Of a stretch of 64,000 bases of DNA, positions 32,862 through 43,230 are shown in pieces. The stretch comes from Escherichia coli (GTDB lineage: Bacteria > Pseudomonadota > Gammaproteobacteria > Enterobacterales > Enterobacteriaceae). The stretch lies in the NCBI RefSeq assembly GCF_046105845.1, contig NZ_CP151004.1; one strand, written 5' to 3'. Position 1 is the stretch's first letter. The number at the start of each line of letters is the position of its first letter. The position numbers were made by a program, and so were the translations under genes. The notes under the pieces are model-generated. The model was not told where the DNA came from. It did no database searches and was given only the letters and a program-made list of their open reading frames with translations.

Positions 32862-33815
32862 ATGACAATCAACGATTCGGCAATTTCAGAACAGGGAATG
32901 TGTGAAGAAGAACAGGTCGCGCGGATCGCGTGGTTTTACTACCACGACGGGCTGACCCAGAGCGAGATCAGCGATCGTCTCGGGCTGACCCGTTTGAAAG
33001 TGTCGCGATTACTGGAGAAAGGGCATCAGTCCGGCATTATTCGCGTGCAGATTAATTCTCGCTTTGAAGGCTGTCTGGAATATGAAACACAATTACGTCG
33101 TCAGTTTTCGCTACAACATTTCCGGGTGATCCCTGGGCTTGCGGATGCTGATGTCGGCGGGCGACTGGGGATAGGCGCGGCGCATATGTTGATGAGTTTA
33201 CTTCAACCACAACAGATGCTGGCGATTGGTTTTGGCGAGGCAACCATGAATACGCTGCAACGCTTAAGTGGTTTTATTTCGTCACAGCAAATTCGCTTGG
33301 TCACGCTCTCCGGTGGCGTCGGTTCTTATATGACGGGTATCGGGCAGCTTAACGCGGCGTGCAGTGTGAATATTATTCCGGCTCCGTTGCGGGCATCCTC
33401 CGCTGACATTGCCCGTACGCTAAAAAATGAAGATTGCGTCAAAGACGTTCTGCTAGCCGCGCAAGCAGCGGATGTGGCGATTGTCGGCATTGGGGCTGTG
33501 AGTCAACAAGACGACGCAACAATCATTCGCTCCGGCTATATCAGCCAGGGCGAACAGTTAATGATTGGTCGAAAAGGGGCGGTTGGCGACATTTTAGGCT
33601 ACTTTTTTGATGCAAAAGGTGACGTTGTCACGGATATTAAAATACATAACGAACTGATTGGCTTACCTTTAAGCGCGCTGAAGACCATTCCCGTCCGGGT
33701 TGGCGTAGCAGGGGGAGAAAATAAAGCCGAAGCCATTGCCGCTGCAATGAAAGGCGGCTATATCAACGCACTGGTTACCGATCAGGACACAGCAGCGGCG
33801 ATTTTACGTAGTTAA
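32862..33815 (+). CDS. lsrR: Transcriptional repressor of the lsr operon (SorC family)
   Basis: 317 aa. Confidence 0.93.
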
Positions 33816-33893
33816 ATTTGCATGACCTTATTACCGGGAATGATGGAGAACGTATAGAGGAACAGACAGAACGCATAAGCCGAGGATAATCTA

Positions 33894-35486
33894 ATGGCTC
33901 GACTCTTTACCCCTTCAGAATCAAAGTACTACCTGATGGCGCTGGATGCAGGCACCGGAAGTATTCGGGCTGTGATATTCGACCTGGAAGGCAATCAAAT
34001 AGCAGTGGGACAGGCGGAGTGGCGGCACCTGGCAGTACCGGACGTTCCTGGTTCTATGGAGTTTGATCTCAACAAAAACTGGCAACTGGCGTGTGAGTGT
34101 ATGCGCCAGGCGCTTCACAACGCCGGCATAGCCCCGGAGTATATCGCTGCCGTTTCGGCATGTTCGATGCGCGAAGGCATTGTTTTATATAACAATGAAG
34201 GAACACCGATCTGGGCCTGCGCCAATGTGGATGCCAGAGCGGCGCGCGAAGTTAGCGAACTTAAAGAACTGCACAACAATACCTTTGAAAACGAAGTTTA
34301 TCGCGCCACCGGACAAACGCTGGCTTTAAGCGCTATTCCCAGATTACTTTGGCTGGCGCACCATCGTTCCGATATTTACCGTCAGGCATCAACCATCACC
34401 ATGATCAGCGACTGGCTGGCCTATATGCTCAGCGGCGAACTGGCGGTGGATCCCTCTAACGCTGGCACCACGGGACTTCTTGATCTAACCACCCGTGACT
34501 GGAAACCTGCATTGCTGGATATGGCCGGACTGCGGGCCGATATTCTTTCTCCTGTCAAAGAAACCGGCACATTGCTGGGCGTGGTAAGTTCACAAGCGGC
34601 GGAACTCTGCGGTCTGAAGGCGGGCACTCCGGTGGTCGTTGGAGGAGGCGACGTGCAACTTGGTTGCCTGGGGTTAGGCGTTGTGCGTCCGGCACAAACC
34701 GCTGTTCTTGGCGGCACATTCTGGCAGCAAGTTGTAAACTTAGCCGCGCCGGTGACAGACCCAGAAATGAACGTGCGCGTTAATCCTCATGTTATTCCTG
34801 GCATGGTACAAGCTGAATCTATAAGCTTTTTTACCGGACTCACCATGCGCTGGTTCCGCGATGCTTTCTGTGCCGAAGAAAAACTGATTGCCGAACGTTT
34901 AGGCATCGACACCTATACGCTGCTGGAAGAGATGGCAAGTCGGGTGCCGCCTGGGTCGTGGGGCGTAATGCCGATATTCTCCGACAGAATGCGCTTTAAA
35001 ACCTGGTATCACGCTGCGCCTTCCTTTATTAATTTGTCTATTGATCCGGATAAATGTAACAAAGCGACGTTGTTCCGTGCGCTGGAAGAAAATGCGGCGA
35101 TTGTATCAGCGTGTAACTTGCAGCAAATCGCTGATTTCTCGAATATTCATCCTTCATCGTTAGTCTTTGCAGGCGGAGGTTCAAAAGGGAAATTATGGAG
35201 TCAAATTCTCGCTGATGTCTCGGGATTACCCGTCAATATTCCAGTGGTCAAAGAAGCCACCGCATTAGGATGTGCCATTGCAGCTGGCGTCGGTGCCGGA
35301 ATTTTTTCATCAATGGCAGAAACCGGAGAACGCCTGGTTCGCTGGGAACGGACGCACACACCAGACCCGGAAAAGCATGAACTTTATCAGGATTCACGCG
35401 ATAAGTGGCAGGCAGTTTATCAGGATCAGCTGGGGCTGGTTGATCACGGGCTGACGACGTCGTTATGGAAAGCGCCTGGGTTATAG
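33894..35486 (+). CDS. lsrK: Autoinducer-2 kinase (FGGY carbohydrate kinase family)
   Basis: 530 aa. Confidence 0.93.
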
Positions 35487-35532: not shown

Positions 35533-36009
35533 GTATTCTTATTTCCCTTCTTTTAGATCTGGTTTGTTAAATGCCAGCTTGCAGATTCATCGTTCCATCG
35601 CCAGTAATATATTCAAGGGGAAATTGCTATTTTTCTTAAAATATTAAGCATAACCCTTATTTTATAGCGAATATTCCTAAAGACATAAATGAATGAAAAA
35701 GAGTTTTAATAGAGTTCTTTTTTAGCAATTAATGCTATTCTTTGTTAAATATGATGATGGTAATTTTCTTATTGAAAGAAACATTTTTCTTATTAAGCAA
35801 CAATAACTCATGGTTCATTTTTAAATAAAATAAGAACTATGCAATTTTTAATCTATCAATTCGAAAGTATTAGCAAATGAGCCAAATTGACACCTTCCCA
35901 CCTCCAACCAACACTCAATACAGACCTCTGACAACTTAATAAGTTTCATTTTTAACGTCTGATGACTCATCTCTTTCGTGGCTGTATTGTTTGTATATGG
36001 AGCGTTTAT

Positions 36010-39000
36010 ATGAATAGAATCTATCGCGTGATATGGAATTGCACCCTACAGGTATTTCAGGCCTGCTCGGAATTAACTCGCAGGGTAGGTAAAACATCAA
36101 CGGTTAATTTGCGTAAATCCTCTGGACTGACAACGAAATTCAGTAGATTGACGCTGGGTGTTTTGCTGGCACTAAGCGGTTCAGCGTCTGGTGCGAGTCT
36201 GGAAGTTGATAATGATCAGATTATCAATATTGATACTGATGTTGCTTATGATGCCTACCTGGTTGGGTGGTATGGCACTGGAGTGCTTAATATTTTGGCT
36301 GGCGGTAATGCCTCCTTAACCACTATTACTACCAGCGTCATTGGTGGTAATGAGAACTCGAAGGGCACCGTTAATGTTTTGGGTGGCACCTGGCGATTGT
36401 ATGATAGCGGAAATAATGCAAGGCCTTTAAATGTGGGCCAATCCGGAACGGGGATGCTGAATATTAAACAGAAGGGGCACGTTGACGGAGGCTATTTAAG
36501 ATTAGGTACTCAAGCTGTAGGCGTCGGGATGGTTAATGTTGAGGGAGAGGACTCGGTTCTGACGACCGAATTATTCGAAATAGGGAGTTACGGTACAGGC
36601 TCATTAAATATTACGGATAAGGGTTACGTCACGAGTTCAATCGTCGCCATTGTAGGATATCAGGCGAACAGCACTGGTAAGGTTGTCGTTGAAAAGGGTG
36701 GCGAGTGGCTAATAAAAAATAATGATTCCTCAATTGAATTTCAAATTGGTAATCAAGGAACTGGGGAGGCGACTATTCGCGAGGGTGGACTGATTACGGC
36801 TGAAAATACGATTATCGGTGGCAATGCCACCGGTATCGGAACCCTGAATGTGCAGGATCAAGACTCTGTCATCACGGTACGCAGAGTCTATAATGGATAT
36901 TTCGGTAATGGCACAGTCAATATTTCCAATAATGGACTGATTAATAATAAAGAATATTCATTGGTGGGCGTTCAGGACGGGTCCCACGGTGTCGTCAACG
37001 TGACCAATAAAGGGCATTGGAATTTCCTCGGAACGGGCGAAGCTTTCCGCTATATCTATATCGGTGATGCTGGCGACGGTGAACTTAATGTCTCTAGTGA
37101 AGGCAAAGTAGATTCGGGAATTATCACTGCGGGGATGAAAGAAACAGGCACAGGCAACATTACTATTAAGGATAAGAACTCCATTATCACTAATCTCGGA
37201 ACTAATCTTGGTTATGACGGCCACGGCGAAATGAATATCAGTAATGAGGGGCTTGTTATCAGCAACGGAGGAAGCTCACTCGGTTATGGAGAAACCGGCG
37301 TCGGGAAGGTTAGCATCACCACGGGGGGGATGTGGGAGGTCAATAAGAATGTCTATACCACCATTGGTGTTGCGGGCGTCGGAAACCTCAATATCAGCGA
37401 TGGCGGTAAGTTCGTATCGCAAAATATTACTTTTTTGGGCGATAAAGCAAGCGGTATCGGCACACTGAACCTGATGGATGCGACATCATCGTTCGATACT
37501 GTAGGTATCAATGTCGGTAATTTTGGTAGCGGCATCGTAAATGTCAGTAATGGTGCCACCCTTAATTCAACGGGCTATGGATTTATCGGAGGAAATGCCT
37601 CCGGTAAGGGGATAGTTAATATTTCAACGGATAGTCTCTGGAATTTAAAAACGTCATCTACTAACGCCCAATTGTTACAGGTCGGTGTATTAGGCACGGG
37701 TGAACTGAATATTAGCACCGGAGGTATAGTTAAAGCGCGTGATACACAAATAGCTCTCAATGACAAAAGTAAGGGCGACGTGCGGGTGGATGGGCAGAAC
37801 TCTCTTCTTGAAACATTCAATATGAACGTAGGGACGACTGGCACAGGTACGTTAACCCTGACGAATAACGGTACGCTGAATGTCGAAGGTGGAGAAGTTT
37901 ACTTAGGTGTTTTTGCGCCTGCTGTAGGAACGCTAAACATTGGTGCTGCTCACGGTGAGGCGGCGGCAGATGCCGGATTTATCACCAATGCGACGAAAGT
38001 GGAGTTTGGTCTTGGCGAAGGCGTTTTTGTCTTTAATCATACCAATAACAGTGATGCCGGCTACCAGGTCGATATGCTGATTACGGGTGACGATAAAGAC
38101 GGAAAAGTGATGCATGATGCAGGCCATACGGTGTTCAATGCAGGGAATACTTATAGCGGTAAAACGTTGGTCAATGGCGGCCTCCTGACCATTGCGTCAC
38201 ATACGGCAGATGGGGTAACGGGCATGGGTTCGAGTGAAGTAACCATTGCAAACCCCGGTACGCTCGACATTCTCGCATCAACGAACAGTGCAGGAGATTA
38301 CACGCTGACCAATGCGCTCAAAGGCGATGGCTTGATGCGAGTGCAGCTGTCATCCTCCGACAAAATGTTTGGCTTTACCCATGCAACAGGAACTGAATTC
38401 GCCGGTGTTGCCCAACTGAAAGACAGTACCTTCACACTGGAACGCGACAACACCGCTGCGCTTACTCACGCGATGCTTCAGTCTGACAGTGAAAATACCA
38501 CATCGGTAAAAGTGGGAGAGCAATCCATTGGTGGACTAGCCATGAATGGCGGTACGCTCACTTTCGATACGGATATACCTGCTGCGACGCTCGCGGAGGG
38601 ATATATCAGCGTCGATACGCTGGTTGTCGGCGCGGGTGACTACACCTGGAAAGGCCGTAACTATCAGGTAAACGGGACGGGCGACGTGCTTATCGACGTG
38701 CCTAAACCGTGGAATGATCCCATGGCGAATAACCCTCTGACGACGCTCAATTTGCTGGAACACGATGATAGTCATGTCGGCGTTCAACTGGTGAAGGCGC
38801 AAACGGTTATTGGGTCGGGTGGCTCATTAACGTTACGTGATTTACAGGGCGACGAGGTGGAAGCGGACAAAACGTTACATATTGCACAAAACGGGACAGT
38901 GGTCGCCGAGGGTGATTATGGATTCCGCCTCACGACCGCTCCTGGTGATGGTTTGTATGTTAACTATGGGCTGAAAGCGCTGAACATCCATGGTGGGCAA

Positions 39001-41430
39001 AAGCTGACGTTAGCCGAACATGGCGGAGCCTATGGCGCAACGGCCGATATGTCGGCAAAAATCGGTGGTGAAGGGGATCTGGCAATCAATACGGTGCGAC
39101 AGGTTTCGCTTTCTAACGGTCAGAACGACTATCAGGGGGCAACCTACGTTCAGATGGGGACATTACGTACCGATGCGGATGGCGCTCTGGGCAATACTCG
39201 GGAACTGAACATCAGCAACGCGGCCATCGTCGATCTTAATGGATCGGAGCAGACGGTAGAGACATTCACCGGGCTGATGGGTTCGACTATTTTGTTCAAA
39301 GAAGGTTCGCTGACGGTGAATAAAGGTGGGATCAGTCAGGGCGAACTGACAGGTGGCGGAAACCTGAATGTTACAGGGGGAACACTGGCTATCGAGGGGC
39401 TTAATGCACGCTACAATGCGTTAACCAGCATTAGCCCAAATGCGGAAGTCAGCCTCGACAATACGCAGGGGTTAGGCAGAGGAAATATTGCCAATGACGG
39501 TCTGTTAACGCTAAAAAACGTGACCGGCAAACTGCGCAATAGCATAAGCGGTAAAGGTATCGTGAGCGCAACCGCCAGCACAGACGTAGAGCTGGATGGC
39601 GATAATAGCCGCTTTGTGGGGCAATTCAACATCGATGCAGGCAGCGCGCTCAGCGTCAACGAGCAGAAAAACCTGGGTGATGCTTCCGTTATCAATAATG
39701 GCCTGCTCACCATCGCCACTGAGCGTAGCTGGGCGATGACGCACAGTATCACCGGTAGCGGCGATGTGACAAAACTGGGGACCGGGATCCTGACTCTTAA
39801 CAACGATTCCGCGGCGTATCAGGGTACGACGGATATCGTGGGTGGTGAAATTGCTTTCGGTTCCGACTCTGCCATTAATATGGCAAGTCAGCACATTAAT
39901 ATCCATAACAGCGGTGTGATGTCGGGAAATGTCACCACTGCAGGTGATGTGAACGTTATGCCAGGGGGGACACTGCGTGTCGCTAAAACCACTGTCGGCG
40001 GTAACCTGGAGAATGGTGGCACGGTTCAAATGAACAGCGAAGGGGGGAAACCGGGGAATGTACTGACCGTTAACGGCAACTATACCGGAAACAATGGCCT
40101 GATGACGTTCAACGCGACGCTGGGTGGCGATAATTCGCCCACGGATAAAATGAACGTGAAAGGCGATACCCAAGGGAATACTCGCGTTCGGGTTGATAAC
40201 ATTGGCGGCGTCGGTGCACAAACGGTCAACGGTATTGAACTCATTGAGGTTGGCGGTAATTCTGCAGGTAAATTCGCGCTGACCACCGGAACTGTCGAAG
40301 CTGGGGCTTACGTCTACACGCTGGCTAAAGGGAAGGGGAATGACGAGAAAAACTGGTATCTGACCAGTAAATGGGACGGCGTAACGCCAGCGGATACACC
40401 CGATCCCATCAATAATCCCCCTGTTGTGGATCCGGAAGGCCCATCAGTTTATCGCCCGGAGGCCGGAAGCTATATCAGCAACATTGCCGCAGCCAACTCG
40501 CTGTTTAGCCATCGCTTACACGACCGTCTGGGTGAGCCGCAGTATACAGATTCACTGCATTCTCAGGGTTCGGCAAGCAGTATGTGGATGCGTCATGTCG
40601 GGGGGCACGAACGTTTCAGGACCGGTGACGGCCAGCTAAATATTCAGGCTAACCGCTATGTATTGCAGCTAGGAGGCGATTTGGCGCAGTGGAGTAGCAA
40701 CGCGCAGGATCGCTGGCATCTCGGCATCATGGCAGGCTATGCCAATCAGCACAGTAATACTCAGAGTAATCATGTGGGTTATAAATCGGATGGGCGCATC
40801 AGCGGTTACAGCGCAGGACTGTACGCGACCTGGTATCAGAACGATGCGAATAAGACCGGCGCTTATGTTGACAGCTGGGCGCTGTATAACTGGTTTGATA
40901 ACAGCGTCAGTTCCGATAACCGTTCTGCTGACGACTATGATTCTCGCGGTGTGACGGCCTCTGTTGAGGGGGGGTATACCTTTGAAGCGGGAACATTTAG
41001 CGGCAGCGAAGGGACGCTGAATACCTGGTACGTCCAGCCACAGGTACAAATCACCTGGATGGGTGTGAAAGATTCTGACCATACCCGGAAAGACGGAACA
41101 CGCATTGAAACGGAAGGCGACGGAAACGTGCAAACGCGACTTGGGGTGAAAACCTACCTGAACAGCCATCACCAGCGTGACGATGGTAAACAGCGTGAGT
41201 TCCAGCCTTACATTGAAGCGAACTGGATCAACAACAGCAAAGTCTACGCCGTGAAGATGAATGGTCAAACCGTAAGCCGTGATGGTGCGCGTAATCTCGG
41301 TGAAGTACGTACCGGGGTTGAGGCGAAAGTAAATAACAACCTTAGCCTGTGGGGGAATGTCGGTGTGCAACTAGGTGATAAAGGCTATAGCGATACTCAG
41401 GGCATGCTGGGAGTGAAATATATCTGGTAA
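36010..41430 (+). CDS. yneO: AIDA-I/Ag43-type autotransporter adhesin with extended signal peptide region, degenerate repetitive passenger and C-terminal beta-barrel translocator; intact
   Basis: ORF 35962..41430. The likely start is the ESPR motif MNRIYRVIWNCTLQVFQACSELTRRV at 36010, followed by a classical signal peptide (LTLGVLLALSGSASGAS). The passenger carries repeated G-x-GTG-x-LNI-type units; the barrel ends ...GMLGVKYIW. Positional orthologue of the K-12 yneO/ydeK pseudogene between lsrK and hipB (from memory). Confidence 0.88.
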   Translation: MNRIYRVIWNCTLQVFQACSELTRRVGKTSTVNLRKSSGLTTKFSRLTLGVLLALSGSASGASLEVDNDQIINIDTDVAYDAYLVGWYGTGVLNILAGGNASLTTITTSVIGGNENSKGTVNVLGGTWRLYDSGNNARPLNVGQSGTGMLNIKQKGHVDGGYLRLGTQAVGVGMVNVEGEDSVLTTELFEIGSYGTGSLNITDKGYVTSSIVAIVGYQANSTGKVVVEKGGEWLIKNNDSSIEFQIGNQGTGEATIREGGLITAENTIIGGNATGIGTLNVQDQDSVITVRRVYNGYFGNGTVNISNNGLINNKEYSLVGVQDGSHGVVNVTNKGHWNFLGTGEAFRYIYIGDAGDGELNVSSEGKVDSGIITAGMKETGTGNITIKDKNSIITNLGTNLGYDGHGEMNISNEGLVISNGGSSLGYGETGVGKVSITTGGMWEVNKNVYTTIGVAGVGNLNISDGGKFVSQNITFLGDKASGIGTLNLMDATSSFDTVGINVGNFGSGIVNVSNGATLNSTGYGFIGGNASGKGIVNISTDSLWNLKTSSTNAQLLQVGVLGTGELNISTGGIVKARDTQIALNDKSKGDVRVDGQNSLLETFNMNVGTTGTGTLTLTNNGTLNVEGGEVYLGVFAPAVGTLNIGAAHGEAAADAGFITNATKVEFGLGEGVFVFNHTNNSDAGYQVDMLITGDDKDGKVMHDAGHTVFNAGNTYSGKTLVNGGLLTIASHTADGVTGMGSSEVTIANPGTLDILASTNSAGDYTLTNALKGDGLMRVQLSSSDKMFGFTHATGTEFAGVAQLKDSTFTLERDNTAALTHAMLQSDSENTTSVKVGEQSIGGLAMNGGTLTFDTDIPAATLAEGYISVDTLVVGAGDYTWKGRNYQVNGTGDVLIDVPKPWNDPMANNPLTTLNLLEHDDSHVGVQLVKAQTVIGSGGSLTLRDLQGDEVEADKTLHIAQNGTVVAEGDYGFRLTTAPGDGLYVNYGLKALNIHGGQKLTLAEHGGAYGATADMSAKIGGEGDLAINTVRQVSLSNGQNDYQGATYVQMGTLRTDADGALGNTRELNISNAAIVDLNGSEQTVETFTGLMGSTILFKEGSLTVNKGGISQGELTGGGNLNVTGGTLAIEGLNARYNALTSISPNAEVSLDNTQGLGRGNIANDGLLTLKNVTGKLRNSISGKGIVSATASTDVELDGDNSRFVGQFNIDAGSALSVNEQKNLGDASVINNGLLTIATERSWAMTHSITGSGDVTKLGTGILTLNNDSAAYQGTTDIVGGEIAFGSDSAINMASQHINIHNSGVMSGNVTTAGDVNVMPGGTLRVAKTTVGGNLENGGTVQMNSEGGKPGNVLTVNGNYTGNNGLMTFNATLGGDNSPTDKMNVKGDTQGNTRVRVDNIGGVGAQTVNGIELIEVGGNSAGKFALTTGTVEAGAYVYTLAKGKGNDEKNWYLTSKWDGVTPADTPDPINNPPVVDPEGPSVYRPEAGSYISNIAAANSLFSHRLHDRLGEPQYTDSLHSQGSASSMWMRHVGGHERFRTGDGQLNIQANRYVLQLGGDLAQWSSNAQDRWHLGIMAGYANQHSNTQSNHVGYKSDGRISGYSAGLYATWYQNDANKTGAYVDSWALYNWFDNSVSSDNRSADDYDSRGVTASVEGGYTFEAGTFSGSEGTLNTWYVQPQVQITWMGVKDSDHTRKDGTRIETEGDGNVQTRLGVKTYLNSHHQRDDGKQREFQPYIEANWINNSKVYAVKMNGQTVSRDGARNLGEVRTGVEAKVNNNLSLWGNVGVQLGDKGYSDTQGMLGVKYIW

Positions 41431-41467: not shown

Positions 41468-41506
41468 AATATTGCCGACTTCAAACGACTTTTAAATCCT
41501 CCTTTT

Positions 41507-41620
41507 TATCCGCGATCGCGGATATCACAGCGTTTATCCCGTAGAGCGGATAAAATGTGTTTCCTGATTGACTTTATCCCCACTAAAGGATAAAACTGAT
41601 AATATCCCCTTGAGCGGATA
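41507..41620 (+). promoter_or_regulatory. hipBA operator region: four HipB operators of the form TATCC-N8-GGATA
   Basis: Four copies read directly: TATCCgcgatcgcGGATA (~41507-41524), TATCCcgtagagcGGATA (~41535-41552), TATCCccactaaaGGATA (~41575-41592), TATCCccttgagcGGATA (~41603-41620). Confidence 0.85.
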
Positions 41621-41641
41621 AATATGCTGTGGACGTATGAC

Positions 41642-41908
41642 ATGATGAGCTTTCAGAAGATCTATAGCCCAACGCAATTAGCGAATGCAATGAAACTGGT
41701 TCGTCAGCAAAATGGCTGGACGCAGAGCGAGCTGGCGAAAAAAATCGGTATTAAGCAGGCGACAATTTCCAATTTCGAAAACAACCCTGACAATACCACG
41801 CTCACGACATTTTTTAAGATTTTACAGTCGCTTGAACTCTCAATGACGCTATGCGACACGAAAAATGCCTCGCCAGAATCAACAGAACAGCAAGATCTGG
41901 AGTGGTAA
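41642..41908 (+). CDS. hipB: Antitoxin HipB (Cro/C1-type HTH)
   Basis: ORF 41624..41908; conserved start MMSFQKIYSPTQLANAMKLVRQQNGWTQSELAKKIG at 41642 (88 aa). Confidence 0.93.
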   Translation: MMSFQKIYSPTQLANAMKLVRQQNGWTQSELAKKIGIKQATISNFENNPDNTTLTTFFKILQSLELSMTLCDTKNASPESTEQQDLEW

Positions 41909-43230
41909 TGCCTAAACTTGTCACTTGGATGAACAACCAGCGGGTAGGCGAGTTAACGAAGTTAGCCAATGGCGCGCACACCTTTAAGTATGCACCGGAG
42001 TGGTTAGCTAACCGTTATGCCAGACCGTTGTCACTTTCGCTGCCATTGCAGAGGGGGAATATCACCTCTGATGCCGTATTTAACTTCTTCGATAACCTGT
42101 TACCCGATAGCCCGATTGTACGTGACCGGATCGTTAAACGTTATCATGCCAAATCCAGACAACCGTTTGATTTATTGTCAGAAATAGGGCGAGACAGCGT
42201 TGGTGCCGTGACGTTAATACCCGAAGACGAAACCGTAACGCATCCGATAATGGCATGGGAAAAGCTTACTGAAGCCAGACTTGAAGAAGTATTAACGGCT
42301 TATAAAGCAGATATCCCTCTGGGCATGATTAGAGAAGAAAATGACTTTCGCATCTCGGTTGCTGGCGCGCAGGAGAAGACAGCGCTGCTCAGAATAGGCA
42401 ATGACTGGTGCATTCCGAAAGGAATAACGCCGACGACGCACATCATTAAATTACCGATTGGCGAAATCAGGCAGCCCAATGCGACGCTCGATCTCAGCCA
42501 AAGCGTTGATAATGAGTATTACTGTCTGCTGCTGGCGAAAGAACTTGGGTTGAATGTTCCGGACGCAGAAATCATTAAAGCGGGAAGGGTGCGCGCGTTA
42601 GCGGTCGAACGTTTTGACAGGCGTTGGAATGCTGAGCGAACGGTTTTACTTCGCTTGCCACAGGAGGATATGTGTCAGACATTCGGTTTACCTTTATCGG
42701 TGAAATATGAATCAGATGGAGGCCCAGGCATCGCGCGGATCATGGCTTTTTTGATGGGGTCCAGCGAGGCGCTGAAAGATCGCTATGATTTTATGAAGTT
42801 TCAGGTGTTCCAGTGGTTGATTGGCGCAACGGATGGCCATGCAAAAAACTTCTCCGTATTTATTCAGGCTGGCGGCAGTTATCGACTCACGCCATTTTAC
42901 GACATCATTTCAGCATTTCCGGTATTGGGTGGCGCAGGAATACACATCAGCGATCTCAAACTGGCAATGGGGCTTAACGCATCCAAAGGCAAAAAAACGG
43001 CAATCGATAAAATTTATCCGCGACATTTTCTGGCGACAGCAAAGGTGCTGAAATTTCCGGAAGTGCAGATGCATGAAATCCTGAGTGACTTTGCCAGAAT
43101 GATTCCGGCAGCACTGGATAACGTGAAGACTTCATTACCGACAGATTTTCCGGAGAACGTGGTGACGGCAGTTGAAACAAATGTGTTGAGGTTGCACCGT
43201 CGGTTAAGCCGAGAATACGGTATTAAGTAA
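41908..43230 (+). CDS. hipA: Serine/threonine kinase toxin HipA
   Basis: ORF 41851..43230; conserved start MPKLVTWMNNQRVGELTKLANG at 41908 (440 aa), overlapping the hipB stop by 1 nt. Gly22 is wild-type; the autophosphorylation-site context RISVAGAQEKTAL is present. Confidence 0.93.
   Translation: MPKLVTWMNNQRVGELTKLANGAHTFKYAPEWLANRYARPLSLSLPLQRGNITSDAVFNFFDNLLPDSPIVRDRIVKRYHAKSRQPFDLLSEIGRDSVGAVTLIPEDETVTHPIMAWEKLTEARLEEVLTAYKADIPLGMIREENDFRISVAGAQEKTALLRIGNDWCIPKGITPTTHIIKLPIGEIRQPNATLDLSQSVDNEYYCLLLAKELGLNVPDAEIIKAGRVRALAVERFDRRWNAERTVLLRLPQEDMCQTFGLPLSVKYESDGGPGIARIMAFLMGSSEALKDRYDFMKFQVFQWLIGATDGHAKNFSVFIQAGGSYRLTPFYDIISAFPVLGGAGIHISDLKLAMGLNASKGKKTAIDKIYPRHFLATAKVLKFPEVQMHEILSDFARMIPAALDNVKTSLPTDFPENVVTAVETNVLRLHRRLSREYGIK

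Follow-up and report, generated by a model that had tools for sequence, protein, structure and literature searches.

The recurring units in the N-terminal passenger region of the autotransporter encoded at positions 36010-41430 of the window are very probably TIGR04393 units that form the beta-helix rungs of an ECSE_1600/YneO type Va passenger, in an old and diverged array that is fixed in copy number. The window is the whole stretch of 64,000 nucleotides of Escherichia coli DNA that was analysed. Both the repeat (TIGR04393) and the gene family (NF011422) are already catalogued, and the feature is an ordinary, known one.

The gene lies on the + strand (36010-41430), is intact and encodes 1806 aa followed by a stop codon. 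The mechanically called ORF (35962-41430, +, 1822 codons), on which residues are numbered below, starts 16 codons before the Met of the gene. These extra 16 codons (window 35962-36009, MTHLFRGCIVCIWSVY) lie upstream of the Met of the extended signal peptide region (ESPR) at 36010. The NCBIfam model NF011422 (ECSE_1600 family autotransporter) matched aa 17-1822 at all 1806 profile positions with 4106 bits against a curated cutoff of 2335, which is a full-length match above that cutoff. As the match starts from aa 17 at profile position 1, the Met at 36010 was taken as the real start, and the RefSeq orthologue annotations begin at the same Met. The gene order lsrR-lsrK-gene-hipB-hipA is syntenic with K-12 when the ORFs in the window are set beside the annotated K-12 genome, thereby placing the gene at the chromosomal site of the ECSE_1600 family between lsrK and hipB. 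The locus is that of K-12 yneO, whose synonyms are ydeK and ydeU (PMC10782963). ECSE_1600 was first listed in the SE11 genome paper as a protein of 1806 aa; according to that paper HS has the gene, MG1655, E24377A and O157 Sakai have it in truncated form and group B2 strains lack it (PMC2608844). The copy in the window is intact, and those of K-12 (frameshifted), O157:H7 and several other strains are pseudogenes. In the window hipB is directly upstream of hipA; the listed hipA ORF (41851-43230, 459 aa) begins 19 codons upstream of the annotated HipA start MPKLVTW, and the annotated hipA of K-12 has 1323 nt.

At the DNA level the autotransporter gene is 96-98% identical to thousands of E. coli genomes. 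Among the 5426 complete RefSeq E. coli genomes the best identity is 98.4% (PCN033), and the flanks holding lsrR-lsrK and hipBA (window 32862-35486 and 41500-43230) are at most 99.2% identical to any of these genomes. It follows from these two values that the source strain has no close relative in that collection.

The protein carries the complete layout of a classical (type Va) autotransporter, that is, signal peptide, passenger, autochaperone and C-terminal beta-barrel in one polypeptide, as recognised by PF13018, PF18883, PF03797, TIGR01414 and the structure 4mee. All its parts are on the + strand. The ESPR occupies aa 17-63 (36010-36150; Pfam PF13018, E 3.7e-14). It is followed by the TIGR04393 repeat array at aa 97-660 (36250-37941), delimited by TIGR04393, a unit HMM and the strand pattern of an AlphaFold2 model, and by the rest of the passenger at aa 661-1347 (37942-40002), which is free of TIGR04393 units according to Pfam/NCBIfam, fragment BLASTP and the unit HMM. 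The autochaperone AC_1 lies at aa 1348-1454 (40003-40323; PF18883, E 3.9e-26) and is a sequence homologue of the IcsA autochaperone (structures 3ml3 and 5ke1). The beta-barrel lies at aa 1541-1800 (40582-41361; PF03797, E 1.4e-41), and the C-terminal part including it is homologous to the AIDA-I transport unit (4mee, E 2e-86).

Some further details of the gene were recorded. PATR/TIGR02601 repeats occur at aa 1269-1299 and differ in type from the N-terminal array, and the C-terminal half of the passenger has a weak repeat of its own (aa 1129-1224 against aa 1195-1292, offset 66, E 6e-6; window 39349-39840). Where five other intact alleles end in GVKYSW, this protein ends in GVKYIW (window 41410-41427), with Ile in place of Ser two residues from the barrel's C-terminal Trp. 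On the - strand, three antisense ORFs (39411-39803, 39511-40221 and 40669-41370; 130-236 aa) lie entirely within the gene and are probably by-products of its codon composition.

The original prediction had described recurring G-(T/S)-G-x-L-N-(I/V) units, and this was borne out by motif counts against shuffles, by fragment BLASTP and by TIGR04393. The five strings that it quoted were all located on the + strand: YGTGVLNI at 36271, SGTGMLNI at 36442, YGTGSLNI at 36589, TGIGTLNV at 36829 and NGTVNISNNG at 36907. The strict motif G[TS]G.LN[IV] occurs 4 times in aa 97-660 against a shuffle mean of 0.00, and the loose motif G.G.[LVMA][NTSRV][IVL] 16 times against 0.39; the observed count of either motif was reached in none of 5000 composition-preserving shuffles. 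Whole-protein self-BLASTP returned the identity match only, and fragment queries were used in its place. They gave 23 internal alignments within aa 87-632 with E values down to 9e-15, most of them at offsets of 102-106, 207-210, 311-314 and 415-417 aa, and two further alignments past aa 1000. The curated model TIGR04393 (T5SS/PEP-CTERM-associated repeat, 49 positions) matched nine stretches with 152.8 bits against a cutoff of 23 (E 1.7e-45). The protein thus has multiple tandem copies above the cutoff of that model, its units measure 49-57 aa (mean ~52) for an expected tandem unit of ~50 residues, and they stand in a type V secretion passenger, with ESPR, AC_1 and barrel in the same ORF.

The periodicity of the array was found to have three levels. 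As the distance from one motif to the next is 24-30 aa (one rung) or 49-57 aa, the basic period is a rung of ~26 aa, each rung carrying a G-x-G-x-[LV]-N-[IV] strand. Two rungs make a unit of ~52 aa and four rungs a super-repeat of ~105 aa, which is present five times. The super-repeat arises because long units of 52-57 aa, which contain Trp in a G-x-W with an extra segment of 6-10 residues, alternate with short units of 49-50 aa. This alternation also accounts for the spacing of roughly 55-60 residues that had been proposed, which did not hold uniformly. Ungapped BLOSUM autocorrelation gave a peak at a lag of 104-105 aa (z 4.9), with the 26 and 52 aa periods blurred by indels.

The first super-repeat, a long W-type unit and a short unit comprising four rungs, covers aa 97-202 (36250-36567, +) and was delimited from the super-repeat alignment and the BLASTP offsets of ~105 aa. 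The following four were placed by fragment BLASTP, the super-repeat alignment and the unit HMM at aa 203-306 (36568-36879), aa 307-411 (36880-37194), aa 412-513 (37195-37500) and aa 514-618 (37501-37815), all on the + strand. In the five-way alignment these modules of 102-106 aa share 27-37% pairwise protein identity. A partial eleventh unit at aa 619-660 (37816-37941, +; unit HMM domain 621-660, i-E 8e-6) ends the array. In total the unit HMM recovered ten full units and the partial eleventh, with domains spanning 98-660; being built from the same units it serves to delimit the array, and the proof of the repeats comes from TIGR04393, fragment BLASTP and the motif shuffles. After aa ~660 (window 37941) the unit HMM gave no match above ~0 bits in the remaining 1160 residues, and aa 661-1340 hold 3 loose and 0 strict motif matches, so the claim that the units continue more irregularly beyond the segment failed. 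Of the proposed segment 36010-38000, the end was about right and the start was wrong, since the array begins at aa 97 (36250) and the segment takes in the ESPR (aa 17-63).

The fold of the array was predicted by AlphaFold2 for aa 85-680 using a 13-sequence alignment with segments of distant relatives of 27-34% identity. The model was all-beta with pLDDT 91.8 and pTM 0.91, and it shows 22 beta-helix rungs. The spacing of first-strand starts was 28, 29, 25, 24 / 26, 29, 25, 24 / 26, 30, 25, 24 / 26, 26, 26, 24 / 26, 30, 25, 24 aa, which yields the four-rung module again without recourse to the sequence analysis. A beta-helix fold of 22 rungs is thus predicted with high confidence for the array. 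In the model the rungs are stacked and three-stranded and superpose on solved passengers, as in a predicted right-handed parallel beta-helix of the pertactin-like kind. The closest solved structures to the model are TibA and Ag43; the Foldseek TM-scores to them are low (0.25-0.34 on query), as expected when rungs of 26 aa are compared with rungs of 19 aa. In a profile search at E<=1 no PDB chain, TibA and Ag43 included, shared sequence with the repeat profile. The description of the units as typical of beta-helical adhesin passengers is therefore supported for the beta-helix, as predicted by the AlphaFold2 strand pattern, and its adhesin part is an attribution by inference.

The G-(T/S)-G-x-L-N-(I/V) units would accordingly act as rungs of a right-handed parallel beta-helix making up the N-terminal third of the passenger, and we infer that the glycines sit at the turns, that the alternating L/V/I side chains point into the core and that the conserved Asn is stacked along the helix. 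After secretion of the protein through its own barrel, the array most likely serves as a rigid stalk or binding surface projecting the protein from the outer membrane; the adhesin or stalk role of the protein is putative. Dips of pLDDT were seen at model residues ~31-40, 61-70, 161-180, 271-280 and 481-490, mostly in the part of the long units that comes after their conserved Trp, and low-pLDDT stretches follow that Trp in four of the five W-type units. In the model these low-confidence stretches may be surface loops.

A more specific reading, which can be offered only tentatively, is that the TIGR04393 array represents a structurally uncharacterised class of passenger beta-helix with 26-residue rungs and a four-rung (~105-aa) super-module, in which a Trp-anchored flexible loop would recur on the same face at every fourth rung and build a periodic ridge for ligand binding or self-association. 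The low pLDDT after Trp in four of the five W-type units is consistent with such a ridge.

It is very unlikely that the passenger belongs to the AIDA-I/Ag43/TibA (SAAT) class, in which imperfect, glycosylated repeats of ~19 residues mediate cell-cell aggregation, even though TibA and Ag43 are its closest solved structures and one paper lists YneO in a gene table as an AIDA-I family autotransporter. The rungs of Ag43 and TibA are ~19 aa long. Those of the present array are ~26 aa, with a rung spacing of 24-30 aa, and the repeat region has no detectable sequence similarity to the passengers of Ag43 (4kh3, 7koh) and TibA (4q1q), in line with the empty profile search. The C-terminal part is indeed homologous to AIDA-I, with NF033176 matching aa 1314-1820 besides the 4mee match (E 2e-86), but the AIDA-I model matches only with its C-terminal positions 801-1285 and not with the AIDA-I repeat region. 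An adjacent glycosyltransferase gene is also absent, the neighbours being lsrK and hipB.

The array had further been proposed as a possible substrate for repeat-number variation, and a contingency or antigenic-variation device would go further, with unit number shifting between strains by slippage or recombination and so altering the passenger length. The modular build of the protein speaks for such a device, but the DNA-level repeat needed to drive it is absent. Tandem Repeats Finder found no arrays in this DNA. Direct repeats are at most 25 nt, imperfect and at chance level, and the longest exact one has 11 nt, equal to the expectation from codon shuffles (mean 10.8, maximum 14). Codon alignment of the modules gave 39-49% DNA identity and no exact in-register run longer than 10 nt, and the best match between modules found by sensitive blastn was 52 nt at 69%. 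Near-identical tandem DNA units able to misalign are thus lacking.

The comparison across strains pointed the same way. The 1701-nt segment 36250-37950 was found in 4172 of the 5426 complete E. coli genomes, in 4010 of them with at least 80% in one piece. Length was assessed on 60 records spaced evenly down the ranking of the 4172 genomes (~70 records per step) together with coverage counts. Nearly all copies in this sample are exactly 1701 nt. The others differ by +/-1 nt, -19 nt or -29 nt, contain IS3-family insertions (two) or, for three copies lowest in the ranking, are truncated or rearranged. As each ranking step holds ~70 records, there can be at most about 140 copies (roughly 3%) that cover 70-99% of the segment, and the spread sample leaves room for rare unit-number variants in about 3% of genomes at most. 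All of the six intact alleles that were compared (those of the window, PCN033, XJ6.1, HS, ES8 and PSJ-36) have exactly 1806 codons, and dN/dS in the repeat region (0.16) is similar to that in the barrel (0.14). Alleles differing by whole units among strains were not seen in the 60-genome sample or in these six alleles, so repeat-number variation within E. coli, as proposed, was not supported by either the DNA or the strain comparison.

Dozens of different internal-deletion alleles were present in a large protein collection. The sample from it is biased, as apparently only E. coli fragments and deletion alleles of ~1027 aa or less were recovered, and no full-length or distant relatives; the latter came from a search of cluster representatives. 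In 120 alleles there were 79 offset changes of at least 10 aa, and all 79 are deletions, with no duplication among them, against what a device shifting unit number would give. Seven deletions have both ends inside the array, and their sizes are 45, 73, 74, 76, 163, 272 and 324 aa. No homology was seen by eye at their approximate junctions, for which the DNA of the window served as proxy, and a repeat-mediated deletion mechanism was rejected on this ground.

Three alleles stand nearer to whole-unit change. The rare alleles P0026 and P0101 have lost 74 and 76 aa, which is close to three rungs and approximately keeps the rung register. In E. coli O139:H1 P15-25 (L003 940-941) a deletion brings aa 148 next to aa 357; its ends fall at Trp+4 of super-repeats 1 and 3, so that in protein register exactly two super-repeats are spanned. 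The deletion, however, removes 628 nt and shifts the reading frame of the gene, whose annotation is that of a pseudogene, and it was regarded as coincidental or due to a rare microhomology event and not as a sign of a working mechanism.

Other rearranged copies were noted as well. Large in-frame deletions in public E. coli assemblies (P0043, P0047, P0067, P0068, P0090, P0104 and others) give 'mini' autotransporters of 860-1000 aa, in which part of the N-terminal array is joined straight to the autochaperone and barrel. In E. coli RMDEC465 (L002 4426-6931) the copy is heavily rearranged, with a deletion of 531 nt inside the array, gene nt 1854-2374 present twice and truncation against a hipA remnant.

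Strains differ through frameshifts, pseudogenisation, IS insertions and deletions of irregular extent, and units are not gained or lost between them; a contingency device is hardly to be expected here. The array is very probably an old, diverged series of duplications whose copy number has become fixed and on which purifying selection acts.

The repeat itself is widespread: 2654 cluster representatives match at E<=1e-3, and 974 reach E<=1e-10. In those of at least 700 aa among the 150 representatives with the best scores, 7-29 units (median 14) were counted, at a median spacing of 50 aa. Such a range among distant relatives, which could otherwise be read as favouring a contingency device, shows that copy number changed often over long times, and it reflects old divergence and not strain-level variation. 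The block 36001-38000, where the Gly-rich (GGN) array lies on the coding strand, has the highest GC skew of the window (0.209). The idea that a biased composition (18% Gly, 11% Asn, 10% Thr) merely mimics repeats, the units not being truly homologous, was refuted by the shuffles and profile matches, for despite the strong enrichment of G, N, T and V and the skew, none of 5000 composition-preserving shuffles matched the motif count, fragments aligned at fixed offsets with E down to 9e-15, an independent curated HMM matched nine times and the 2654 representatives match the region.

The importance of the feature is small beyond correct annotation, the true periodicity being 26/52/105 aa and not 55-60. 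With DNA that has diverged past misalignment and a length that is fixed in E. coli, the array is unsuitable for typing or for treatment as a variable-number repeat. K-12 and O157:H7 have the gene as a pseudogene; the intact allele of the window would make a reasonable subject for adhesion tests, since no functional or structural study of YneO/ECSE_1600 was found in the literature, where it appears only in the SE11 genome paper and in gene-list mentions.

Compared with known systems, the protein matches NF011422 (ECSE_1600 of SE11, yneO of K-12) end to end over 1806 positions and stands at the same lsrK-hipB locus. The passengers of pertactin and Vag8 from Bordetella are less regular, whereas the present array is clearly periodic in two and four rungs. 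The TIGR04393 relatives have the same unit as the E. coli protein, with a median spacing of 50 aa and the consensus ...VTVxGxGSxWxxxxxLxVGxxGxGxLxIxxGGxV.... Most of these relatives keep the Trp in every unit, whereas in the E. coli protein the G-S-x-W segment and 6-7 residues have been lost from every second unit, and its effective module has therefore become two units of ~105 aa in all.
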